Source: an uncultured Planctomycetota bacterium
GTDB lineage: Bacteria > Planctomycetota > Planctomycetia > Isosphaerales > Isosphaeraceae
Reading direction: 5' to 3'
Assembly (NCBI GenBank): GCA_963823665.1
Contig: CAWGMQ010000010.1
Location: 2,528,001 to 2,592,000, forward strand
Length of the DNA stretch: 64,000 bases
This document shows, one piece after another, positions 6,506 to 42,124 of the stretch. Each line of letters opens with the position of its first letter. Position 1 is the stretch's first letter. The notes beneath the pieces are model-generated. The model was given only the letters and a program-made list of their open reading frames with translations, was not told the DNA's origin and made no database searches. Both the position numbers and the translations under genes were made by a program.

Positions 6506-6652
6506 TCATTTCATTCTCGGGCCTCGAGCCCCGCCGGCCGGCCGGCGGCTCTGCCCCATTCATGATTGGCGGCGAGCCCGTACTATCTTGCGCGGCATTC
6601 GAAGCCGCGGCCAGGGGGAGGAATTACGTGGTGAATCCTGACGATGAGGAGA

Positions 6653-6805
6653 GGGATGTTTGACACCCGCCTCGTGCGGAGCGTCGAAGACTCGCCTTAT
6701 GCGTGTTCGAAATGACCGGAGGGGCCGTGGTGTTGCGGCGAACGTGCGAGCCGCGCATGAATGGATGCGGGGGACCGTCACAAATGGGTGGGGGTCTGGA
6801 AGCCC
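6653..6805 (+). repeat. 153 bp MITE/REPIN-like element, copy A
   Basis: GGGATGTTTGACACCCGCC...GGGTGGGGGTCTGGAAGCCC; colinear with 9667..9819. Confidence 0.85.
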
Positions 6806-6849
6806 TCTGATCGAACGGCGCTTACAAGCCGATCCATCGCGCATGTTCA

Positions 6850-9165: not shown

Positions 9166-9666
9166 CGCTGCTTTCGCTTCCAATCAAGTCTCCCTTGACG
9201 TTTCCATCATTCTACACCGCCTCCGCGCTCGGGAGGAGTTCATGGCCTTTGGCGTACGGGAATCGCCGGCAGTGTAGCGGGTCGCCGGAGACTGGCGCGA
9301 CAAGGCGGGCTCGCCATTGCGGAACCGACGGCCGGTGTGGTCGAGCGTGAGTAGGTAGCTGCCGAGCGAGAAGCCCTCGCGCGTTCGTTCACGTGGTGGA
9401 CCGGACTTGCGTTTGCTTTCGACCGGGCGGATGCGGATTGATTCCGGATGCTGGCGTCGGTGGGCGGCTGCTGGATTGAATCGAAATCTGGGGCTGGGCC
9501 GCGTGGATTGGGGTGAGGAGCGAGGTGAACTACCGTTGCCGTGGCCGGCGCGTATTCAGTTTTGAACATAAGGTAACTGAGATAACGAAGTGGGAGACGA
9601 GAGGCTGACGGGGAGGTAGGGCGGGCCGGAGTTTGGATTGTTTCTGGTCGACCAGGAACGCGATCA

Positions 9667-9819
9667 GGGATGTTAGACACCCGCCTCTTGCGGAGCGTCG
9701 AACACTCGCCTAATGCGTGTTGGAAATGACCGGAGGGACCGTAGTGTTGCGCCGAACGTGCGAGCCGCGCATGAATGGATGCGGGGGACCGTCAGAAATG
9801 GGTGGGTGGCTGGAATCCC
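9667..9819 (+). repeat. 153 bp MITE/REPIN-like element, copy B
   Basis: GGGATGTTAGACACCCGCC...GGGTGGGTGGCTGGAATCCC. Confidence 0.85.
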
Positions 9820-10000
9820 TTGCGCCATCAGGACTTCGCGGCAGCGTCTTTGGGCAGTCCGAATCGCTTCTTGGCCAACGCGATCTCGTCCACGAGCCGA
9901 CAGTGAAAGCGAGCTTCCACGTTGTCAGACTCAATTCGATTGCCATGCAGAGCGCGGGTGCTTGCGGGAAGGTAGACTGAGTTTCGTGGGTCGCTGACAT
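9820..10000 (-). pseudogene. IS110-family transposase N-terminal fragment
   Basis: LCMAIELSLTTWKLAF and, in another frame, DEIALAKKRFGLPKDAAAKS; ends at repeat copy B. Confidence 0.65.
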
Positions 10001-10861: not shown

Positions 10862-13800
10862 TCAATCGAGTGGATATTCGCCTAGTAGTTCGTCCAGTTG
10901 CCCGGCGCATATGTTTTGGGCCCCATGAGCGCAGTCCTCTCGTTCCTGCGGCTGCACAATCGAGCCTCCGCAGTAGTGATGCGCTAACTCATGTAGAAGC
11001 AATTCGGCCAGCTTCCGCGGAGAATAGAAGCAGGCGTGTGGACATACGACGATTACGTTGGTACTCGCGATCGTGAACATCGGCGCAAACAGGCAGATCT
11101 CGCATGCGAGTACGCCACCGATCAGCGATATACCGAAGGTTGTCGTACCCGAAGGAGCTCTCTCGATTGGCGAGCGCGGTGTGTCAAGTTTCTCGGCGTG
11201 TTCTTCGAACCACGCTTTGCATCTTCCGGATCGAACCACTTCGTTTACCGCGGCAATCGCCTTTCCCAATCCAGGGCAAAACAGCGCGAGCGAATCCGTC
11301 CGAATCAACCTAGGTGGCGAAAATGCCGGCTTGTTCTTTAGGACATCCGGACCGGCCGGGTAGTTTGCCGCGTATCGGTAGTCGCTAGCGAGTCGCGTCC
11401 TGCGCACGAAGTTGCTGCTCAGAAATCTCCCCGTCACCGGGTCGTAGACTGTCGCGCGGGCGTGATACTTGGCGAGATCCGGGTCGTAGAGGTATCCGGA
11501 CCGGCCAATGTAGCGAAACCAGTTAACGCTTGCACCGGTAGTCGAGAGCTCGTTCCCGAATGCGTCGTAGATGTAGGTGTCCGATTCGACACCCGCGTTG
11601 TCAGACAACAGCCTCGTCGAGCCCAGCACGTCGAACGAGTAAAACAGTTCCGCACCGCCGCGCGCCTGCGAGATTAACTTCCCATACTGTGCTGGCTCAA
11701 GTGAGTTTACAGCTTGTATGATGCCGCTGGCATTCGTCTCCAGCAGTACGCATTGCCCATCCCAGATATTCTTCGCCGTTCCCGTCGAATCTTGCTTCGC
11801 GATTCGCCGACCATCGGCGCTGTACGTGAATGTATTCACGATTCCTGACGACAATACCGCATTCGCCAGTCGGTTTTCGCCGTCCCAAGTGTTCGTAGTA
11901 AGCTGGTTGCCTGGCGCGAGCGTGGTCAGCAGATTTCCGTCGCCGTCGAACGTATAGGTGGTGACGCCGGCGCCCGTCTGGCTGGTGGTGAGCTCGTCCG
12001 CCGCGTTGTATGCGTAGGTCGTCGCTGCGCCGCTATTTACCATTAGCGTTCGATTGCCTACACCATCGTAAACGTAGGTGATGTTGTACGCTGTAGCCCC
12101 GCTGCGTTTTTCGTTGGTTAGTTGATATGTCGGGTCGTAACTCCAGGTCACGACCGATCCATCCGCCTCGATCACCTGTGTGCGGTTGTTAACCGCGTTG
12201 TAGCTGTAGGCGAAGCTCGAGAGTGTTGAGCCGCCCGGGCCAAGGTTTGCGAGGATCAGTTGGCGGTCGGCGTTGTCGTACACATTTGAGATGACGAACA
12301 CCATTGGCGAGCGCCTGGCGCGTGACGCGGCTCGCCACGTCGTAAGACCAACTCGTCACCTGCGCTTCGGGATTTGTCAACGTGCTGATTCGCCCGACCG
12401 CGTCGTACGCATACGTGAAGGTTCCGGTGGGCTGTTTCAACGTAGCGCGTTGGCCGACCGCGTCGTACGCGTAGGTCAGCACGATCCCTGCTGGATTCAC
12501 CACTGAACTCAACCTTCCTACTGGGTCAAAAGTCGAGGTGTAGCTTCCCGTCCAATCGCTCAGAACCGTACGACGGCTATTCGCATCATATGAGAGTGTA
12601 GAGCGTGTCGCGTCCTGGTATTGCTGACCTAAGAGTCGGCTCGCTGCATCGTACGTGTAGCTCGTGCGCAGGCTGCGGCCGTCGATGCGAAGCACTCGCC
12701 TGCTCGCGGCATCATATTGATAGGTGACTTGGTTGCCAAGTGCGTCGGTGGTGCCGGTCTGTCTGCCGGAGACGTCCCATGCAAAACTTGTGCGGTTTCC
12801 TCTGGCGTCGATGATGGCGATCCGTTGGCCGACGGCGTCATAGACCTGAGTCGTGGCGAACCCGTTAGCGTTCACGGTGGCCAGCATTCTGCCGTCCGAA
12901 TCGTAGATTGTCGTTGTGGCATTCCCGAGCGCGTCGGTTATCGACACCTGCTGGCTAGAGGCGTCGTACGAATATGAGCTTCGATTTCCGAGCGGGTCGA
13001 CCGTCGCGATCAGTCTGCCGGCGGCGTCAAACACGCTGGTGACCGCGTTGCCGAGGGGATTGATCCTGGCCACGGTCCTGCTTGCGGCATCAAAAACTGT
13101 TGTGGTTGTATTGCCCAGAGCGTCAATGGAGGCGACTGGCCTGTTAGCTGCGTCATATACCGTCGACGAGACGAAGCCCAGTGCGTTCGTCGCGGATACT
13201 GGCCGGCTTGCCGCGTCGAACCCCATCGTCGTCCGGTTGCCGAGGGCATCGACAGTCGCGATCACCCTGCTCGCGCTGTCGTAGACGATCGAGCTCCGGT
13301 TTCCGAGGGCGTCGATCCGAGCGATCGGCCGACTGGCATTGTCATAGACAGTTGTAAATACGTTCCCAAGTGGATCAATGCTCGCTACCGGGCGGTTTCC
13401 GGCGTCGTACGCGGCGGTCGAGCGATTCCCCAGCGGATCTATTGACGCAATTGACCTGCTTCCAGTGTCGAATACCGTACTGCTGGTGTTCCCCAACGGA
13501 TCGATGAAGGCCACGGACCTGTTGGCGGCGTCGAACACTCTTGTGAAGACGAAGCCGAGTGCGGTTGTGCTGGTGACGGGCCTGCTCGCGGCATCATAGC
13601 CCGTGGTCGAGCGGTTGCCGAGCGGGTCAATCCCCGCGATTGGGCGCGAGGCGTTGTCGAATACAGTTGTTGATACGTTCCCGAGTGGATCGGTCCGGCT
13701 GGTCGGCCTGCTGGCCTGGTCGTAACCGATGCTGCTCCGATTTCCGAGTGGATCGACCGCTGCAATGAGCCGATTGGTGGCATCGAAGACGTTAGTGCTC

Positions 13801-16800
13801 GTGAAGCCCAATGGATTGGTCGAGCTCACGAGCCTGTTCGCCGCGTCATATCCCATCGAGGAACGATTGCCCAGCGGATCAACGGTGGCGACCAATCGAT
13901 TCCCATTGTCGAATACGCTGGACCAGATGTTGCCCACTGGATCGGTCCGACTAACGCGCCGGCTACCACCATCGTACCCGTACGAGGTCGTGCTACCGAC
14001 GGAGTTGATCGTCGCCAGGACTCGGCCGGCTTGGTCGTAGACCGCGGAGTCTCACATTGCCCAGCGGGTCCGTGTAGTTGACCGGCCGATTTGCTGCGTC
14101 AAACCCTATGGACGAAGTGTTGCCCAGCGGGTCGACCGATGTGCTTGGCCGGCCACCGCCGTCATACGTCGTGCTCCAGACGGCCCCGAGCGGATTTGTG
14201 AAGGCGATGGGATTGCCTGCATTATCATAACTATATGAGCTTGTGTTGCCCAGCGGATCGGTCGAGGCCGTCTTCCTTTGCAACGAGTCAAAGCTCGTGG
14301 TCCACACGTTCCCCAGCGGGTTTGTGGTCGCGATGGGCAGGTTTGCGGCGTTATACGTGAAGGTGTTTCGATTCAACAGCGGGTCAACCGAGGCGATCCG
14401 GCGGTATTGGGCGTCATAGACGCCCGTGGTCCGGTTGCCGAGCGGGTCCACCTGGGCCGTCATGTTGTTGGCCGCATCCCAAACATACGATGTCGTGTTG
14501 CCCAGGCCGTCGACGCGGGCAATGAGTTTGCTCATCCCGTCGTAGACAGCGGTGCCTATGGCTCCCAGCGGGTTGGTCGTGCTGATCAAGTTGCCGACTG
14601 CGTCATATGCATAACTCGTGGTGTTGCCGAGCGGATTTGTTTGGGCGATCAGCCTGCCACTTAAGTCGTAGCTCATGGACCAGATCGTGCCCAGCGGGGT
14701 CGTCACTGAGATCAATCGACTGTTGGCATCATATTGATAAGTCGTGTTGTTTCCGACTGGATCGATAAAATTGGTCAGCCGGTTGACCTGGTCGCTCAGA
14801 TAGGTCGCGACGGCGCCGAGCGGGTTCTGCACGGTCTGCAAGATGCCATTTGAGTTGTAGGTGTAACTCATGCGGTTGCCGAGTGAATTCACCAGGGCGA
14901 TTTGCCGGCCGAACGAGTCATAAACGAGCGTGACCAGTTGCCCGAGCGGGTTCTGCACCGATTGCAGTTGGCCCATGCTGGTGTAGGTGTACGACGTCGC
15001 GTTGCCCTGCGCGTCGATCGCGGCGCTGCGCTGGCCGGAGGCGTTCCACGTCAGCGTTGCCGTCGCGCCGAGCTGATCGGTGATCGAAGTGACCTGGCGC
15101 TCGAGTTAAAGTTGTACGTGAAGATGCCGCCCAGGGGCTGGGTGATGGAGTTGAGGTAACTCACCATGTTCGTCGCGTTCTGAAGGTAGCTGAACGTCGT
15201 CGTGTTTCCCAGGCCGTCGCCGATAGCGAGCAGATGGCCGGTACCGTCCCAGGAGTAACTCGTGATATTCCCGACGGCGTCGGTTGCGCCCAGCAAGGTT
15301 CCATTCGTGTCAAAACCGAGCGTTGCCACGTTCCCCAGCGGGTTCGTGACCGCCGAGAACGTCGTCCCCGGGATACGGGGTCGAAATCGCCCGCCGGTTA
15401 CAACACCGTTAACCAGCGTTGTCACGGCTCCGAGCGGCGAGGTGATCACCAGCCCCGATGCGTACGAGAAGCTCGTCCTGTCCCCGAGCGGGTTGATCCA
15501 GGAGGTCATCTGGTGGCTGCCGTTGTAGACCGCGCTGGTGATGCAGAGCTCCGGGCTGATCACCTGTGCGAGATCTCCTGAGCCGTTCACGGTCAATGTC
15601 GTGAGCCGCCCGAACGGGTCTTGAATGCTGATGATCTTGCCCGACGTCGCGTCGTAAGCGAACGTCGTGCGGCGGCCGGGTGGATCGGTCACGAAGCTGA
15701 CACGATTGCTGCCGTCGTAGGTGACGGTCCAGCGAGCGCCTGCGGGATTCTGGATGTACTGCAAGGACAGGACACCGCCCGACAGCGAGCCGTATTGAAA
15801 GATCGTGCCATCGGGCTGCGTCTCGGTGGCGGTGCTCGCGTTCATGGGAGCTTGCAGCGAGTTCGCTGTGCTGGCTGATGGCGAGCTGAAGCCTCCGAGC
15901 TGAGCGCGATTGTAAGGGAACGACTGGCCGGCGCCGGTGACGACGGTCAGCGTATGTGACGCCACCTGGACCTGGCGTTTGAATGTATGGAACTAGCCGG
16001 TGCCCAGCTCGTTCGAGGTCGCGATGTTCGTGCTGGAGTATGACAGCACCGGCGCAACGTAGAAGAGATCGCCCGCCGGAGGCGCGATCTGCATGGCCAC
16101 GCTGGGATTGGCGGGGTTGATCACACACTGCCCGCCTAGCGAGTTGCAGCCGCCGGCGGCGAACGTGAGCGGCGGAAGGGCACCGCTGCGGGCGATGCTG
16201 GGCATGTGGGCTGCACGCTGGAGCGCAGCCTGGCCGCCGCCGCCTGGTGTGAGCACGATCGGTGGCGCGCCACGTGCTCCATAGCCACCGCCGCGTCGGG
16301 CCATCGGGGCTCCGCCGTTCGGACCGCCGGGCGCGGCGCCGGTACCGTTACCGCCACCTGGGGGCACACATTGCCCGGGCTTCTCGCAAGGCCCGGTGCT
16401 TCCGGGGCCGCCGGGCGTTTGAATCGGGCTGGAGCTGACCGGGCCGGGGCCGCCTATCGGGCCGATCGGGCCGTTGGCTGGCGAGAGGATGATGCCACCG
16501 AATCGGCCGCCCGCTCCGCCGCCGCCGCCCTTGAGCGTCCAGATCGGCCCGCTGCCACTGCCCCCTCCGACGGGCGACGCGCCGTTGCCGCCAGCCCCGC
16601 CGCCGCCACCGCCGCAACCGCAGCCGGCACCCCCGCCATGGTACACCGGCCCGGGCAAAGGGGTCGGCCCGAGTGGAACATTGCCCGGCGTCAACTGGAT
16701 TGTGCCGCTGGGTGGAGGAGATAGCCCGCCGCCGCCAGGCGTGCCTCCGCCCTTCAAGATCGGGCCCGGGCTGAGCGTCAACCCATTGCCGCCGCCGCCC

Positions 16801-27771: not shown

Positions 27772-27900
27772 GCGCCCTCCGGAGTTCCCCGCTTCGCTCC
27801 CCGGATCGTAACAAGAATCCGTAGCAAAGCTATCAGTAGCAAGAATCCATCGGAACGAACTTGATGTAAAGCCAAGCATATTAATCAGTTAGAGATACTC

Positions 27901-27941
27901 GGAGAGGTGACAGAGTGGTCGATTGTGCGGCACTGGAAATG
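27901..27941 (+). tRNA. 5' half of tRNA-Ser(GGA), truncated after the anticodon loop; att site 1
   Basis: GGAGAGGTGACAGAGTGGTCGATTGTGCGGCACTGGAAATG; no variable arm or T arm follows. Confidence 0.85.
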
Positions 27942-28002
27942 ACGTTCAACGGGTGCCTATTGCCCTAAGTTGTTTGGAGACGAGTGGATAGGAAGATCGC
28001 CC

Positions 28003-28365
28003 ATGGTCAGCAAGGACCGTGAACAGACGCGGACAGAGGCCGCCCAGGCGACGCGACGGCAGAAGTCACGTGAGCTTGATGAGGAACACGAGCAGATCCT
28101 CAAGAAGGCGCAGATTTACTTGCTGTTCGAGGCGAAGCGCCCGATGTTCTGGAACGTCGCCGATATCCGAGAGGGGAAGGGCGAGGGTGGCTCACGCCGC
28201 TGGATCATTGCCGTGCATCTCCGTGCTCCGTCTGGGCATGAGGGATATCTGGGCGACCTCCTGTACGATGGCGAGCGGTTCTCGGAGTTGACGGACGTCG
28301 AATTGATGCGGCGGCGAGTGCAGCAGATCACGGCTGACCCCGGAAGTCCGTTGCCGATCGCATGA
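28003..28365 (+). CDS. Hypothetical protein, partner of C39-like peptidase (copy 1)
   Basis: 120 aa from MVSKDRE; ATGA overlap with next gene. Confidence 0.7.
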   Translation: MVSKDREQTRTEAAQATRRQKSRELDEEHEQILKKAQIYLLFEAKRPMFWNVADIREGKGEGGSRRWIIAVHLRAPSGHEGYLGDLLYDGERFSELTDVELMRRRVQQITADPGSPLPIA

Positions 28366-28859
28366 GTACCGGACTTCCGCACTACCGCCAGGAGAAGAAG
28401 AATACCTGCGCCCTGGCGTGCCTGCGGATGGTCCTTGCTTCCTTCGGCACGGACGTCGAGGAGGGCACGCTCGAGGCCCGGGCGCACATGGAGATCGACG
28501 GTACAGAGATCGGCGAACTTGAGCGTCTTGCGCGGCAGTTCGGGGTCGTCGCAGACATCCAGGAGGCGACAGTGGCGCAGCTTCGGCACCTGCTGGAGGA
28601 CGGGAAGCTGCCTATCGTCTACATCGACCGTGCTATCTTTTAATTGCGTCCCCGCCAACGGGCGCAGCACTCCATTCGCGACACCATCATCCACACCGTC
28701 ATCCCCACGCGGGTCATTACCAGTTTTGTCACATACCATGACCCTCGCCAAGTTCGGGTCATCCGGAAGACCACTGGCCTCTTCCGTCAGGCATACGAAG
28801 CCCTGGGAGGGCGCTGCGTCGTCTGCTCCAAACCTGCGAGAGGCCTAGACCATGGCTAG
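28362..28859 (+). pseudogene. C39-like cysteine peptidase with in-frame TAA (copy 1)
   Basis: QEKKNTCALACLRMVL...DRAIF*LRP...IIHTVI...YHDP; Cys before the stop, His/Asp after. Confidence 0.75.
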
Positions 28860-28874
28860 CCGTGAGTCTCCCGC

Positions 28875-28957
28875 CGACTGCAAGTGCCTGACGCTCGGCA
28901 AAAGGTGGGTGTCTCACATCCCTGACGCTCGGCAAAAGGTGGGTGTCTCACATCCCC
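28875..28957 (-). repeat. Left half of repeat element, end duplicated in tandem
   Basis: (CTGACGCTCGGCAAAAGGTGGGTGTCTCACATCC)x2. Confidence 0.85.
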
Positions 28958-34979: not shown

Positions 34980-35288
34980 CGGATTATGCGAGCTACCAAA
35001 ACATCCGGCATAGCACACACGCCCCCGTCGAAGACGAGGGCGCGGCCATTGAGTTGATTCAAACGCGCAAGCGTGCGGGCGGCAAGGGGTTGGTAGGTAA
35101 TGACGGGCTTGCCAGGCCAAACTTCTTGAAGGTGGCCTAGTAGCAAATCTGCCGCACAGCCGGTATTCTAGATTTCCTATTGACCGCCCCAGATCGTATC
35201 AATGAATCGTATCAAGGGCGTTTGTATCAGAATTGGTGGGAAAAACGCTTGACTTAAACCTCTTAATGCCAACGAGTTAGAATCAATT

Positions 35289-35329
35289 GGAGAGGTGACA
35301 GAGTGGTCGATTGTGCGGCACTGGAAATG
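35289..35329 (+). tRNA. 5' half of tRNA-Ser(GGA); att site 2
   Basis: Identical to 27901..27941 with a different upstream flank. Confidence 0.85.
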
Positions 35330-35390
35330 ACGTTCAACGGGTGCCTATTGCCCTAAGTTGTTTGGAGACGAGTGGATAGGAAGATCGCCC

Positions 35391-35753
35391 ATGGTCAGCA
35401 AGGACCGTGAACAGACGCGGACAGAGGCCGCCCAGGCGACGCGACGGCAGAAGTCACGTGAGCTTGATGAGGAACACGAGCAGATCCTCAAGAAGGCGCA
35501 GATTTACTTGCTGTTCGAGGCGAAGCGCCCGATGTTCTGGAACGTCGCCGATATCCGAGAGGGGAAGGGCGAGGGTGGCTCACGCCGCTGGATCATTGCC
35601 GTGCATCTCCGTGCTCCGTCTGGGCATGAGGGATATCTGGGCGACCTCCTGTACGATGGCGAGCGGTTCTCGGAGTTGACGGACGTCGAATTGATGCGGC
35701 GGCGAGTGCAGCAGATCACGGCTGACCCCGGAAGTCCGTTGCCGATCGCATGA
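35391..35753 (+). CDS. Hypothetical protein (copy 2)
   Basis: Identical translation to 28003..28365. Confidence 0.7.
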   Translation: MVSKDREQTRTEAAQATRRQKSRELDEEHEQILKKAQIYLLFEAKRPMFWNVADIREGKGEGGSRRWIIAVHLRAPSGHEGYLGDLLYDGERFSELTDVELMRRRVQQITADPGSPLPIA

Positions 35754-36247
35754 GTACCGGACTTCCGCACTACCGCCAGGAGAAGAAGAATACCTGCGCC
35801 CTGGCGTGCCTGCGGATGGTCCTTGCTTCCTTCGGCACGGACGTCGAGGAGGGCACGCTCGAGGCCCGGGCGCACATGGAGATCGACGGTACAGAGATCG
35901 GCGAACTTGAGCGTCTTGCGCGGCAGTTCGGGGTCGTCGCAGACATCCAGGAGGCGACAGTGGCGCAGCTTCGGCACCTGCTGGAGGACGGGAAGCTGCC
36001 TATCGTCTACATCGACCGTGCTATCTTTTAATTGCGTCCCCGCCAACGGGCGCAGCACTCCATTCGCGACACCATCATCCACACCGTCATCCCCACGCGG
36101 GTCATTACCAGTTTTGTCACATACCATGACCCTCGCCAAGTTCGGGTCATCCGGAAGACCACTGGCCTCTTCCGTCAGGCATACGAAGCCCTGGGAGGGC
36201 GCTGCGTCGTCTGCTCCAAACCTGCGAGAGGCCTAGACCATGGCTAG
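35750..36247 (+). pseudogene. C39-like peptidase with in-frame TAA (copy 2)
   Basis: Identical to copy 1 including the stop. Confidence 0.75.
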
Positions 36248-36262
36248 CCGTGAGTCTCCCGC

Positions 36263-36367
36263 CGACTGCAAGTGCCTGACGCTCGGCAAAAGGTGGGTGT
36301 CTCACATCCCTGACGCTCGGCAAAAGGTGGGTGTCTCACATCCCAAAGGTGGGTGTCTCACATCCCC
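36263..36367 (-). repeat. Left half of repeat element with three nested end copies
   Basis: AAAGGTGGGTGTCTCACATCCC three times. Confidence 0.85.
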
Positions 36368-36566: not shown

Positions 36567-36980
36567 TCATTTGGCAGTCAGGTGCCAGTTTTCCAGGTTC
36601 AAGTCCGGCACCCGGCTGAACTCTGCGGTATTGGCGGTGACGAGTATAAGACTGGCAGAGCGGGCATGACCGGCCAAGAGCACGTCGTACGCACCGATCA
36701 TACAGCCCTGGGACTCCAAAAGAGCGCGAATGCGCGCGGCTTCCCTCGCGGCCTCTCCGTCAAAAACGAGCTCGCTAATCGTGGCCAGCAGCAGATCAAC
36801 CTTGGCCAGCTCCTTCGCCGGGTCGTCGCACTTTTCGACCCCAGTGAATAGCTCGTAACTTGTAATGCTGGAAATCGCGCAGTCTGCCGGCGGGACCGCA
36901 GCCATGTGTTGCAGCACCAGGGTGTGATGTCGCATCGCGGCAATGCATGTGTTCGTGTCGAGCAGATAGCGTATTGGCAA
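36567..36980 (-). CDS. vapC: VapC-family PIN-domain toxin
   Basis: YLLDTNTCI, IGAYDVLLAGHA, LVTANTAEFSRV. Confidence 0.95.
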   Translation of the reverse strand: MPIRYLLDTNTCIAAMRHHTLVLQHMAAVPPADCAISSITSYELFTGVEKCDDPAKELAKVDLLLATISELVFDGEAAREAARIRALLESQGCMIGAYDVLLAGHARSASLILVTANTAEFSRVPDLNLENWHLTAK

Positions 36981-38212: not shown

Positions 38213-38830
38213 ATGAGTGCTCGTCGCTCTGAACTATTGCCGAGATTCTGCAGTCGACGCCGTTCGGGGATGAACCTCTCATACGCTGAAGTCAACGGAA
38301 TCTATGCGATCGTCGAGGCCAACGCGAATAAAGCCAGAAAAACCAAGATATCAAAGCGGCTTGCGATTTCAGATCAGACGATCGCAACCCGATTGACAAG
38401 TCAACGGAACGGCAAGAAGAAGAAGAAGAAGAAGAATAGGAGGAAGAAGAATCGCTCTGATCGAATGAAACTCGCTGAGGCGAGGTTCGTAGTCCGCCTC
38501 GAAGAAGCGGAAGCGGTCGAAGACCGCGGAGACTACGGCAAGGCCGAGTTTCTCTACAATGAACTAATTTGCTTGTGCAAACGCGACTTTCGCATTGGCC
38601 GACACGAATTGGCGTTTCTATACCATGACTTGGCTCGCTTGCATCTTTGCCGGGATAGGTTGGAACTGGCGAAAATTCTATTCGAGAAATCGCTCGAGGT
38701 ATTCGTCAGGACGGTGGGTGTTGAGCATCGCTACACGCGCACCGTGAGAGCGGATCTTGCCGCCTTGGCTAGCGGAAGGGATTGCGGGGCTTCCGCCCGG
38801 AAAGGCACCAATTCCGTACGCGCCTACTAA
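38213..38830 (+). CDS. TPR-containing protein with poly-Lys tract (start uncertain)
   Basis: GDYGKAEFLY...LAFLYHDLARLH...VGVEHRYT. Confidence 0.6.
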   Translation: MSARRSELLPRFCSRRRSGMNLSYAEVNGIYAIVEANANKARKTKISKRLAISDQTIATRLTSQRNGKKKKKKKNRRKKNRSDRMKLAEARFVVRLEEAEAVEDRGDYGKAEFLYNELICLCKRDFRIGRHELAFLYHDLARLHLCRDRLELAKILFEKSLEVFVRTVGVEHRYTRTVRADLAALASGRDCGASARKGTNSVRAY

Positions 38831-39040
38831 CTCGGAGGGTATCATGTTGCGGCGAGAACGCTGACTACATGAGTTGGGGCGCTCATCTGTCCGAGGGAGC
38901 GGTTGCGATGTGGTGGACACCGAGTGGTGAACGAGCGCTGCTTGGCGCGGAGTGGGACTTTTTCCGTGAAGGGCTTCATCACTGTTGGGAGTGGGTCGAG
39001 CAATCGATGAATGATCCTGATCTGTTCCAAACCGGGGTCA

Positions 39041-39995
39041 GGTATGTTGCCGGGTCGCCCTGGCGGATCGCTCCGCCAGGGCTCCCACTGATCCGGACGT
39101 GCCCAATTAAGGCATCCGGCTCGTCATGTCGCGGCGTCGCTGTCCCTCACACGATCTGGTCGCCTCGCGGTGACGCGCTCTGAGGTCCAATGCCCTCGGC
39201 GTGGTTCCGGCTTCCAGTCCGCGACACGGTACCCCCTTCGCTCCACAGGGTCTGGGAGGGCCCATTCCCCCGCTTCACTGCTACTACGGAGCACTCCGAC
39301 TCCCGTCCGCCCATTTCGCCGCACTTCGTTGCCTTCGTTTGGCGATACCACCCTTGCGTCTTGTTCGCTCCCAGCGACCCGACGCGGGGTCGTGGGCCGG
39401 GGAGTTGGTATTCCGGTTCCCGAGCCGGAAATGTCAGTGGAGACGGATGGGGCTCTCAGGTTCCCGAGCAACCCTCGCGTCCCTGCGCCATGTTCTTGGA
39501 CCCCGGCAGGACCGAACACGCCAGGCCATTGCGGCGTGTCGACACGGCCCCCGCTTGTGTCTACAACGGAGGCTCCCACGATGAGTATTTCGGGGCTCGA
39601 TAGCATGGCATGGAGACTCGCTGTCTACGCTTCGCAGTGAGGGTCACCCCTCCCCACGCAAGACTTGCTTCCGGCTGCCGGCCAGGCTCTGCCGGGCGGG
39701 ATTCGTTAACCCGCAGGGTCGCGATGAAAGGTTTCTGTGTTTCGAGGCACTTCCTCCTTTCTCGAGCTTTTCCTGACGCAAAGACACCCACCTTCTGCGC
39801 AGCGTCTGACACGCGCTTTCTTCTTGTCGAAATGACGGGCGGCCGTGCCGTGGTTCTTCGCCGAACGTGTGGGCCGCGAACGCATGGATGCGGAGGGCGT
39901 GACAAGAAGGGTGGGTGTCTGGGTTCCTGGATGCGGAGGGCGTGACAAGAAGGGTGGGTGTCTGGGTTCCCGAAGGGTGGGTGTCTGGGTTCCCC
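39041..39995 (+). repeat. Repeat element copy C, split by the intron, right end triplicated
   Basis: GGTATGTT|intron|AGACACCCACC...GAAGGGTGGGTGTCTGGGTTCC x3. Confidence 0.85.
39049..39781 (-). ncRNA. Complete ORF-less group II intron (IIB-like), about 733 nt
   Basis: 5' TTGCG; EBS1 AGACAC in stem-loop (plus strand 39557-39562); DV GAGCCGGATGCCTTAATTGGGCACGTCCGGATC; DVI ending CGACCCGGC; no RT ORF. Confidence 0.9.
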
Positions 39996-40184
39996 TGGGA
40001 GGGCGCTGCGTCGTCTGCTCCAAACCTGCGAGAGGCCTAGACCATGGCTAGCCGTGAGTCTCCCGCCGACTGCAAGTGCCTGACGCTCGGCAAAAGGTGG
40101 GTGTCTCACATCCCTTATAACAGAATGTAGCATTTTCCGGTATTCTGTGATATCGTTGAGCGGAACCGAAAGGAGGGTGCCGGC

Positions 40185-40469
40185 ATGAACGTTTCACTGA
40201 CCAAAGAGTTTGAGAGCTACGTCACGGAGAAGGTTGAGAGCGGCTTGTACCAGTCCGCCAGCGAGGTCATCCGCGATGGGCTCAGGCTGATGAGGGAACG
40301 GGATGAGTTGCACCAAAGCAGGGTGGCCGAGCTTCGCCGAGACATCGCCATAGGCATTGACCAAGCCGAACGTGGGCAGGTGCAGCCTTTCAACGAGGAA
40401 GTCACAGCCCGCGTCAAGGCACGCGGGCGGAAACGCCTGGCGGCCAAAGACAGATCGGACTCGGTATGA
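40185..40469 (+). CDS. parD: ParD-family antitoxin
   Basis: MNVSLTKEFE...VESGLYQSASEVIRDGLRL. Confidence 0.93.
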   Translation: MNVSLTKEFESYVTEKVESGLYQSASEVIRDGLRLMRERDELHQSRVAELRRDIAIGIDQAERGQVQPFNEEVTARVKARGRKRLAAKDRSDSV

Positions 40470-40756
40470 ATGAGCCGAGGCTCACCGAGCAAGCGGAGGC
40501 CGACCTAGACGAGCTATGGGAATACATCGCGGCGGATAACCCAGACGCCGCCGACCGCATGGTTGATGCCGTTCTGGAGAGCCGCATGCATGTTCGCTTC
40601 CCTGGCATGGGCCAAAACCGCGACGATCTCCGAGTGGGCCTGCGCTGCTTCGTCGTGTCGCCGTACGTAGTGTATTATCGGCCGATCGAGGACACGATCG
40701 AGGTGCTGAGGATTTTGCACGGAGCACGCGATATTAAAAATATCAGCATAGAATGA
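40466..40756 (+). CDS. parE: ParE/RelE-family toxin
   Basis: QAEADLDELWEYIAADNPDAA...EVLRILHGARDI. Confidence 0.92.
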   Translation: MNEPRLTEQAEADLDELWEYIAADNPDAADRMVDAVLESRMHVRFPGMGQNRDDLRVGLRCFVVSPYVVYYRPIEDTIEVLRILHGARDIKNISIE

Positions 40757-40861
40757 CTTCGCAGTTCTTTCTGAGAGGCCGAGCGAGGCGGGTGCCGGGA
40801 CGAGGCGGAGACCGGGACGCGATCAGTGAATGCAAAACTGTCCGCGTCCCGGTTTCACTTC

Positions 40862-41373
40862 CCCAGGCGACGCGACGGCAGAAGTCACGTGAGCTTGATG
40901 AGGAACACGAGCAGATCCTCAAGAATGCGCAGATTTACTTGCTGTTCGAGGCGAAGCGCCCGATGTTCTGGAACGTCGCCGATATCCGAGAGGGGAAGGG
41001 CGAGGGTGGCTCACGCCGCTGGATCATTGCCGTGCATCTCCGTGCTCCGTCTGGGCATGAGGGATATCTGGGCGACCTCCTGTACGACGGTGAGCGGTTC
41101 ACGGAGTTGACGGACGTCGAATTGATGCGGCGGCGAGTGCAGCGGATCACGGCTGACTCCGGAAGTCCGTTGCCGATCGCATGAGTACCGGACTTCCGCA
41201 CTACCGCCAGGAGAAGAAGAATACCTGCGCCCTGGCGTGCCTGCGGATGGTCCTTGCTTCCTTCGGCACGGACGTCGAGGAGGGCACGCTCGAGGCGCGG
41301 GCGCACATGGAGATCGACGGTACAGAGATCGGCGAACTTGAGCGTCTTGCGCGACAGTTCGGGGTCGTCGCAG
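40862..41373 (+). pseudogene. Third, slightly diverged partial copy of the hypothetical + C39 gene pair
   Basis: Matches about 28043..28554 with a few substitutions; cut by repeat copy D. Confidence 0.85.
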
Positions 41374-41704
41374 GATGTAAGACACCCACCTTTTGCCAAG
41401 CAACGGGTACTTGCCGTCGGCGCGTTTGAAATGACCAGAGGCCGTGGTTTTGCGCTGAACGTGCGAGGGGGAATGAATGGGTGCGGAGAACCATGACAGA
41501 AGCATGGGTGTCTGGAATCTGGGTGTCTGGGTGTCTGGGTGTCTGGAATCCTGTGGAATCCTGTGGAATCCTGGGTGTCTGGTATCCCCTGAACATGCGA
41601 GGGGAAATGAATGGGTGCGGAGAACCATGACAGAAGCATGGGTGTCTGGAATCTGTGTGGAATCCTGTGGAATCCTGGGTGTCTGGTATCCCTCTGGTAT
41701 CCCT
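41372..41704 (+). repeat. Repeat element copy D with heavily stuttered right end
   Basis: GGATGTAAGACACCCACC...; arrays of TGGGTGTC and TGTGGAATCC plus an internal re-duplication. Confidence 0.88.
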
Positions 41705-42124
41705 GACCAACAGTGAATCACCCAGGATCATCCGGTTCGACCAGTGCTGGTCGTGGTGGTAGAAGTCGATCTTCTTGTCGAAATCGTCGATGCCGTTGAA
41801 ATCGGCGAAGAGGGTCAGTTGCTCTTCGGGCTTGCCTTTTTTTCGCTGGGCGAGCAGGTCATCGATGATCGCCTGGGGGTGGATCTTTTCCTGGATGTAG
41901 ACTGGCACGATTGGAACTGCCAGGTCTTGGCGGTCTTGGTCGTCTTTGCCTTTCCAGACGAGTTGGGGGTCGAGCGAGGGATCGCGGGGGTAGAGCATCG
42001 TCCTGGGGGCTGCTTCATCGTCGGCGATGAAGTCGCGCAACTCTTCGGTGGGGATGTTTTTCCGCTTGTCTTTGTGGCGAGTGAATTCGACTTTGGTTTC
42101 GGGCGGCGGCTTCTTTTTGGCCAT
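41704..42124 (-). pseudogene. mod: Type III RM Mod methyltransferase, N-terminal fragment
   Basis: RKNIPTEEL...DPQLVWKGKD...YIQEKIHP...WSNRMILGDSLLV, then repeat sequence. Confidence 0.85.

Follow-up and report, generated by a model that had tools for sequence, protein, structure and literature searches.

An ORF-less group II intron of class E type probably homes to the terminal core of dispersed repeats and of a Y1/HUH unit in an Isosphaeraceae genome

The window analyzed here, a whole stretch of 64,000 nucleotides from an uncultured Planctomycetota bacterium of the family Isosphaeraceae, holds a short repeat whose terminus is interrupted by an intron-like insertion. What is this insertion, why does it lie exactly in a repeat end, and which enzyme could have brought it there? 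Its boundaries, its match to Rfam RF02005 and its other genome copies identify it as an ORF-less group II intron of apparent class E / IIB type, 733 nt long and located on the minus strand (39049-39781), with the 5' end TTGCG and the 3' end CCCGGC (TTGCG...CGGC). The core of domain I (39491-39705, minus strand) matched RF02005 (group-II-D1D4-6) with 138.4 bits, the gathering score being 49, and RF00029 stayed below its gathering score on both the window and the reverse transcriptase (RT)-encoding sister intron L020. DV (39090-39122, minus strand) folded with an AGC triad and an AC bulge, and DVI (39051-39088, minus strand) displayed a bulged A at 39055, seven bases before the intron end, as a candidate branch point. 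RF02005 and these folds agree with the defining features of a group II intron, a ribozyme of six domains whose DV is catalytic and whose DVI has a bulged A. DIV (39123-39236, minus strand) is compact and ORF-less (∼120 nt); its nested hairpin at 39170-39204 is homologous to the region around the start codon of the RT-encoding sisters and, judging from this homology, is presumed to be an RT-binding site. No RT ORF was found in the window intron, and the short ORFs overlapping it (127 to 190 aa, partly extending into the flanks) were treated as chance frames across the ribozyme. The folding z-score of the whole intron was only -2.2 and adds little, and no promoter-like site was found in 38500-41500. 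These boundaries and folds agree with the original prediction of a complete ∼733-nt minus-strand intron with TTGCG, an AGC-triad DV and a DVI but no RT ORF. The canonical GUGYG...AY ends were absent; TTGCG...GC was found in 20 of 20 genome copies and in most relatives. Because UUGCG...GU ends are reported for another IIB intron in the accessible text of PMC7923331, we regard these ends as a known kind of deviation.

Without the window intron, the exons join as GGTGGGTGTCT|AACATACC, which rebuilds a repeat terminus as predicted from copy B (9666-9820), an empty repeat whose intron-free site reads GGCGGGTGTCTAACATCCC and which shares 73% identity with the host repeat; another copy was found at 6652-6806. 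The last six bases of the 5' exon, GTGTCT (39782-39787, minus strand), form IBS1, and the 3' exon consists of the outer 8 bases of the terminus (AACATACC, 39041-39048, minus strand). The body of the host repeat, ∼153 bp, occupies 39782-39927 and has another core, which faces outward, at 39913-39920; next to it, the far terminus is duplicated in tandem on the plus strand (39928-39993), with cores at 39956 and 39979. This repeat had at least 41 matches in the genome (best 40 of 104 candidates scored), and the core GGGTGTCT occurred 20 times in the window versus 1.45 expected. The proposal that the 153-bp repeat is the target was right about the terminus as the site and too narrow about the repeat, since the core is also common to a Y1 transposase unit. 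Elsewhere in the window, near-identical duplicated blocks bounded by cores (27860-28923, 35248-36311, 40862-41161 and 39993-40115; 300-nt and 123-nt families and a small C39 peptidase-like gene) adjoin parDE (40185-40756) and PIN-domain (36567-36980) genes and are possibly repeat-bounded mobile cassettes. A cluster of eight cores with short tandem units (41373-41721) interrupts a second copy of the peptidase-like gene and a methyltransferase-like frame. The long region of 63-nt periodic repeats at 12369-15353 is presumably a gene for an RHS/YD-repeat protein.

The genome of origin (G000; 16.5 Mb in 12 contigs) contains at least 14 short copies with 97 to 100% identity (best 40 of 85 candidates scored) and at least 6 long copies of ∼2,012 nt each that carry the same guide as the short form. 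All 20 copies directly follow GGGTGTC(T/C), the exon being GGGTGTCT in 19 copies and GGGTGTCC in 1; the base after the intron (+1) is G in 18 copies and A in 2, and the flanks differ in all 20. Copies at sites unrelated to the repeat had been named as an outcome that would overturn the original prediction; every full copy (20/20) was at a repeat core. The predicted RT-encoding sister with the same EBS1 is represented by the six long copies, which encode a 465-aa RT/maturase (TIGR04416, 326.5 bits; cut-off, 300) with RVT_1 as its sole Pfam match and no endonuclease domain. The ORF is intact in 2 of the 6 and frameshifted in the other 4, and these frameshifts may include assembly errors; 4 sisters are interrupted in DVI. 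PDB and phage searches returned distant RTs only. The window intron was also present, with 1 difference and another flank, in a contig of a public soil run from a sample that is perhaps not independent.

We propose, with a probability of roughly 85%, that the window intron is a non-autonomous class E type group II retroelement that homes to the terminal core through EBS1 and EBS3, and probably EBS2, with the RT of the long sisters. The intron RNA would fold as a normal ribozyme, and the short form would borrow the endonuclease-less RT/maturase of the co-resident long sisters, a related RT-coding intron being present as six sisters, two of them with intact ORFs. The RNA would then reverse splice into DNA selected by EBS1 (AGACAC:GTGTCT), EBS3 (C:G) and probably EBS2. 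The site would be the terminal core GGGTGTCT|RNNNTCCC of dispersed repeats, namely ∼150-bp elements and a multicopy ∼1.8-kb Y1/HUH unit, whose cores would provide landing sites by the hundreds, mostly intergenic and on either strand; insertion would probably use the lagging-strand template at replication forks. The steps that we infer in this scheme are splicing, action of the sister RT in trans, dependence on forks and a Y1-driven spread of the repeats.

The pairing of guide and target was directly observed. EBS1 AGACAC (39557-39562, minus strand; intron nt 220 to 225) lies in the Id3 hairpin (39547-39573, minus strand). In a single-sequence MFE fold of the window intron, the last two AGACAC bases were paired; in the consensus fold of 23 related Id3 hairpins, the entire hexamer was unpaired in the loop. 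Homologues were taken from G000 and 17 of 22 matching relatives (23 of 61 genomes matched, G000 included). Eight matches had no clear 5' end and 1 more was dropped; of the 68 that remained, 7 were without an intact Id3 or 5' end, which left 61 introns to be scored. With their own exon, 48 of these paired at 6/6 positions and 58 at a minimum of 5/6 when wobble was allowed, and pairing was poor in 3. Across 21 distinct EBS1 types, 110 of 126 positions paired, compared to a mean of 52.8 and a maximum of 78 in 50,000 shuffles, kin not being independent. EBS1-IBS1 pairing from the Id3 loop is thus established, and the complementarity first noted between AGACAC of a domain I stem-loop and GTGTCT is corroborated by covariation. 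A location of AGACAC outside the Id3 loop, the other outcome that would have spoken against the prediction, was not found: the hexamer is in the loop of the consensus fold and covaries with the exon.

EBS3 was assigned to intron nt 284 (C at 39498, minus strand in the window copy), which covaries with the +1 base (38 Watson-Crick pairs and 1 wobble pair of 44); no EBS3 was found in the 3' strand of the Id stem. One mismatch was a mis-pick by the search pattern, the base actually being G, and the window copy is one of two with a C.A mismatch, its first 3' exon base being one of the rare A's. A candidate EBS2 loop, ACTCATC (39580-39586, minus strand), could pair with exon positions -11 to -7, G(A/G)TGG; 31 of 3,000 shuffles reached its score on a row set without 15 rows (8 of them valid), which gives it weak support.

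The core itself invites a different explanation, namely a DNA hairpin target as in class IIC, where the RT would read the folded-back repeat or the core palindrome and EBS1 would be secondary. The empty core GGGTGTCTGACATCCC forms an imperfect palindrome with the insertion point at its center, and an inverted core lies ∼127 nt upstream of most sites. We nevertheless find this explanation unlikely. All 6 bp of EBS1 are used and EBS3 shows covariation; an inverted TGGGTGTCT-type core is missing from the 260 nt upstream of at least 5 of 21 5' ends; folding two cores together would hide IBS1; and the target in relative G008 is not palindromic.

On plasmid pRmeGR4b, the sister RT matched a disrupted intron (43%, 274 bits) better than another RT intron (39%, 152 bits); the former matches RF02005 (145 bits) and the latter RF01999. 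A disrupted class E intron and an RmInt1 copy are recorded in the pRmeGR4b strain in the accessible part of PMC5894124, and the two matches would correspond to these. Because the sister RT is closer to the disrupted pRmeGR4b intron and RF02005 is common only to that one, we assign the window intron and its RT to a class E type rather than to IIC, the grouping of the RT being based on one reference that was itself identified by inference. The domain I family is the same as in this reference, and the RT lacks an endonuclease. Class E introns such as S.me.I4 and Cl.be.I2 share the Rfam domain I family and, in the accessible text of PMC5894124 and PMC3753933, have a small ribozyme, EBS1 plus EBS2 and no endonuclease. 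Their ends are GTGYG...AY, whereas those of the G000 intron are TTGCG...GC, and the same text describes neither repeat targeting nor ORF-less proliferation, both of which occur in the G000 family. The analogy to IIC-attC introns that accompanied the prediction does not hold, given the class E type RNA and RT, the 6-bp EBS1 and no integron integrase above the cut-off. Class IIC and IIC-attC introns also insert at repeated palindromic motifs according to the parts of PMC4424553 and PMC7923331 available, but they use a 3- to 4-bp EBS1 plus an upstream hairpin and no EBS2, in contrast to the 6-bp EBS1, candidate EBS2 and other domain I family of the G000 intron. Membership in IIC was rejected on the covarying 6-bp EBS1, the candidate EBS2 and the sites without an upstream partner core.

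Recognition of the short form by the sister RT is an assumption, since the two forms are only 77% identical in DIII and 59% in DIV. This divergence, the frameshifts in 4 of 6 sister ORFs and the 4 sisters interrupted in DVI would also suit mobilization by another RT of the genome, either the 634-aa enzyme of an RT-HNH intron with at least 7 identical copies or a 479-aa family. We judge this to be very unlikely. These enzymes show 34 to 39% identity and go with other RNA families (RF02012 in the case of the 634-aa type); a hairpin homologous to the sister ORF start is retained in the compact DIV; and the strand bias described below fits an enzyme lacking an endonuclease. The RT-HNH intron is a second group II intron of ∼2,420 nt (RF02012; L046-L052, e.g., L072:13707-16126), and its 634-aa frame comprises an RT and an HNH-like end. 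The seven copies found are all nested at the DV-DVI junction (GTGGGAR|C) of members of the window intron's own family, namely 4 long sisters, 1 short copy and 2 members of a second short family. The third RT family (479-aa frame, at least 3 copies, L041-L043) is 38 to 39% identical to the sister RT.

Read data consisted of contigs of 2 DNA and 2 RNA runs. No exon-exon joint was found in the contigs of the 2 RNA runs, and contigs cannot show absence; they contained near-identical intron pieces, one of them across the compact DIV, for which DNA carry-over is possible.

The orientation of the copies bears on the route of insertion. Each cluster uses a single strand, whichever repeat end that gives; in cluster C11, introns occupied 6 of the 10 cores on the plus strand and none of the 17 on the minus strand. 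Intron sense coincided with the G-rich strand in 7 of 10 clusters; 2 were ambiguous, and the window was neutral or against, local skew being noisy and no origin known (window skew, 0.002; local 16-kb block, +0.087, without fit to the skew rule). By analogy, this strand bias fits the fork-dependent route of the endonuclease-less RmInt1 and RmInt2.

The same copies largely refute a passive spread, in which the intron would have entered one repeat once and then traveled as cargo of Y1-driven repeat movement or of recombination between repeats. Such a history would account for the presence of every copy in a repeat end and for the clustering of copies, 9 of the 13 short copies with GTGTCT lying within the 134 kb around the six sisters, where 66 of the 334 cores are found. 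However, the host repeats are only 71 to 92% alike while the introns are 97 to 100% alike, and the hosts vary in kind (either end of the 150-bp element, the end of a Y1 unit and other subfamilies). Head-to-tail intron pairs occur in tandem end duplications, and intron orientation tracks the chromosome strand and not the repeat end, which leaves passive spread hardly credible. The clustering itself does no more than hint at local spread or at tolerant regions, because the regions were chosen knowing the copies.

TGGGTGTCT occurred 334 times in G000 versus 45 for the control. In the regions fetched, cores form outward-facing pairs, mostly 125 to 131 nt apart and often with tandem end duplications. 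The core also caps the ends of a multicopy ∼1.8-kb unit with a 420-aa frame that has HUH and Y---NP motifs. At 15 Y1 loci in G000, a core was found ∼220 nt before or ∼320 nt after the gene in 11 and at both ends in 5, and one long intron is inserted in a Y1-unit end. Inverted ends at a fixed distance from the Y1/HUH gene, on at least one side, were found in relatives G001 (4/4), G033 (4/4), G022 (3/3) and G009 (1/3). The 420-aa protein matched NF047646 with an E value of 2.9e-8 and a score of 33.7, below the cut-off of 80, had HLH and YVDLNP motifs and had no Pfam match. It would move or spread the small ∼150-bp elements.

A comparable arrangement is known from the TIRtrons/TIRYT and TnpA-Y1 subclass 2.3 (PMC3733652; bioRxiv 10.1101/279083, accessible parts), where an HUH/Y gene is likewise accompanied by inverted ends at fixed distances, dispersed dimers and clusters; subclass 2.3 also shares with the G000 Y1 unit a long multicopy protein and a Y---NP motif. 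The TIRtron consensus is reported as GGGGWSAS and is not matched by the G000 core GGGTGTCT, which differs at one base when read on the core's strand. Moreover, subclass 2.3 is reported without flanking REP-like structures, whereas the G000 Y1 gene is flanked by inverted GGGTGTCT ends. The available text of PMC3733652 does not contain the word "intron." The core does not match a canonical GTAG REP, which has a GT(A/G)G foot and a perfect stem-loop: its palindrome is only weak and variable, although GTGG does stand before it in many copies.

Several observations concern these repeats. Y1/HUH loci in G000 (L165-L179) and in relatives (L206-L229) have inverted GGGTGTCT ends and long tandem end duplications; 16 cores lie 3' of one Y1 gene in G033, and the Y1 family is expanded in G001, G033 and G009. 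At L066:1280-1480, a 150-bp repeat with end duplications has inserted into a short RAYT-like gene, within its 3' part. After seven cores come TTGCGTCAC-like bases that imitate the first 8 nt of the intron and then continue as a different ∼110-nt repeat (e.g., L075:13144-13285, L076:8141-8282, L081:16453, L082:16036 and L073:3731), by eye resembling the right end of the Y1 unit. These sites may be relics of insertions or a hairpin variant.

The idea that the repeats are integron attC sites occupied by an intron of attC type is highly improbable. In its favor, GTCTAAC fits RYYYAAC in the window copy alone and toxin-antitoxin genes lie nearby. Against it, the best integron integrase match in G000 scored 112.6 with a cut-off of 265, most cores continue with GAC, GGA or GGC instead of AAC, Y1 transposase units are capped by these outward-facing cores, and the neighboring ORFs lie on both strands.

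Across the 61 genomes, GGGTGTCTG was strongly enriched in G000, G001, G030, G033, G009 and G007, and G000, G001, G030 and G033 contained introns with GGGTGTCT or its opposite strand as the exon. The opposite strand is used by the second short family (72 to 73% identical), which is present in G000 and G001 and has EBS1 TGTCTG and the site CAGACA|CCC. One other genus, represented by G022, shows the same link between intron and Y1 end with a motif of its own. There, an intron with EBS1 TGCCTG interrupts GGCCAGGCA|CCTAAAGAG; this motif was found 43 times versus 3 in G022, was enriched there only (2 to 8 in six other genomes) and was located upstream of all three Y1 homologues examined. In G008, the target is a different, non-palindromic repeat (35 versus 1, including ∼8 matches inside introns). 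The G008 motif, AAGGAAACGAAG, also occurs within domain II (intron nt ∼445 to 460) of many family members, which therefore carry a copy of their own IBS1 context (G008 loci L150-L156). The hypothesis that every relative targets an abundant repeat failed, the motif being scarce in G003, G014 and G021 (6, 5 and 5 versus 1, 3 and 4; 8-mer counts of 162/76, 128/80 and 267/245, respectively); Y1 matches were weak, with only 3 in G003 and only 1 in G014. This comparison of target abundance was made without G002, G011, G031, G046, G051 and G052.

Short forms with a compact DIV were present in 8 genomes (119 to 123 nt where measured). In 15 such sequences from the 8 genomes, 15 of 25 predicted DIV pairs showed two-sided changes, and DIV retains the hairpin that spans the start codon in the long form. 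The window short form and the long sister are 98 to 100% identical over nt 1 to 470, falling to 77% in DIII and 59% in early DIV. In DIII and early DIV, the window intron more closely resembles the short form of G030 (87%) and the second short family (77%), and the long sister is 90% like the long forms of G014 and G003. Trees behaved similarly: short forms grouped with the long forms of their own genome in the 5' part, and the short forms of G000 (both families) and G030 grouped together (93/94) in the 3' part. A single clade of all ORF-less forms was rejected for the 5' part (p-AU, 1.8e-68) and gave a p-AU of 0.16 for the 3' part; in these tests, 10 rows were left out owing to pattern failure and near-duplicates were collapsed. 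The near-identity over nt 1 to 470, the divergence in DIII and DIV and the difference between the two trees argue that DI-DII were exchanged between short and long forms. By sequence comparison, then, the short form is a mosaic, with DI-DII matching the RT sister and DIII-DV from an older ORF-less lineage. Some short forms arose separately: those of G022 and G031 are plain internal deletions, and that of G014 seems to derive, by a deletion of its own, from the G014 long form. In G030, all four copies that look long (L131-L133 and L136) are short introns with a ∼2.3-kb transposase-like insertion, IS110-like by eye, at nt ∼449.

We advance a broader interpretation only tentatively and would lean slightly against it. 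A class E lineage in this bacterial family may have specialized on Y1/HUH end motifs, with the guide retuned to the motif of each genome and even to both strands, and an old ORF-less tail module (DIII-DV, ∼120-nt DIV) may have persisted across genera by exchanging DI-DII with RT introns, making it a SINE-like recombining family and not the product of repeated local decay.

Parts of this picture have precedents. RmInt2 of Sinorhizobium meliloti GR4 (class D; PMC4615759, accessible part) is also an endonuclease-less intron of IIB type, whose 7 copies all lie in ISRm17 inverted repeats; it similarly shows two sites per element on opposite strands, a lagging-template bias and head-to-tail copies. 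RmInt2 has its own RT and is class D, whereas the G000 copies are mostly ORF-less and of apparent class E. Its target is the inverted repeats of an IS, as opposed to a short terminal core with hundreds of copies that is common to a Y1/HUH unit and small derivatives, and, differing from RmInt2 as described there, the relatives of the G000 intron in other genera are retargeted to their own motifs. The ORF-less TeI3 introns of Thermosynechococcus elongatus (PMC2882425, accessible part) likewise outnumber the RT-coding ones (17 there) and have one old DIV deletion that predates EBS divergence, EBS families and twintrons. Mobilization in trans was shown experimentally for TeI3 and is proposed for the G000 intron. 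TeI3 introns are CL/IIB1 with an endonuclease and belong to one species, in contrast to the G000 lineage, whose compact DIV spans genera, whose DI-DII were exchanged between short and long forms and whose targets are repeat ends.

The literature, searched mainly where openly accessible, yielded no paper in which group II introns home into REP, TIR or TIRYT repeats, nor any on such introns in Planctomycetes, and the available parts of PMC4853749 and PMC2828477 do not describe such homing. Surprise is limited, because homing into the inverted ends of another element and trans-mobilized ORF-less copies have each been published. What appears to be new is that introns are linked with Y1 transposase ends in at least two genera, that each strand of a single core is targeted by a guide family of its own and that the ORF-less tail is mosaic. 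Insertion sequences that target REP sequences reportedly use a dispersed intergenic repeat as a landing pad in a similar manner; they are said to be DNA transposons without an RNA guide.

In this genome, the ORF-less form outnumbers the autonomous form 14 to 6 among the copies found, and it recurs in 8 genomes of one family. For class E type introns whose ends are U...GC, the set supplies natural covariation of EBS1 and EBS3, and it makes an exchange of guide domains between autonomous and non-autonomous retroelements accessible to testing. The Y1 unit, the small repeat, the class E type intron and the RT-HNH intron form a nest of four levels.
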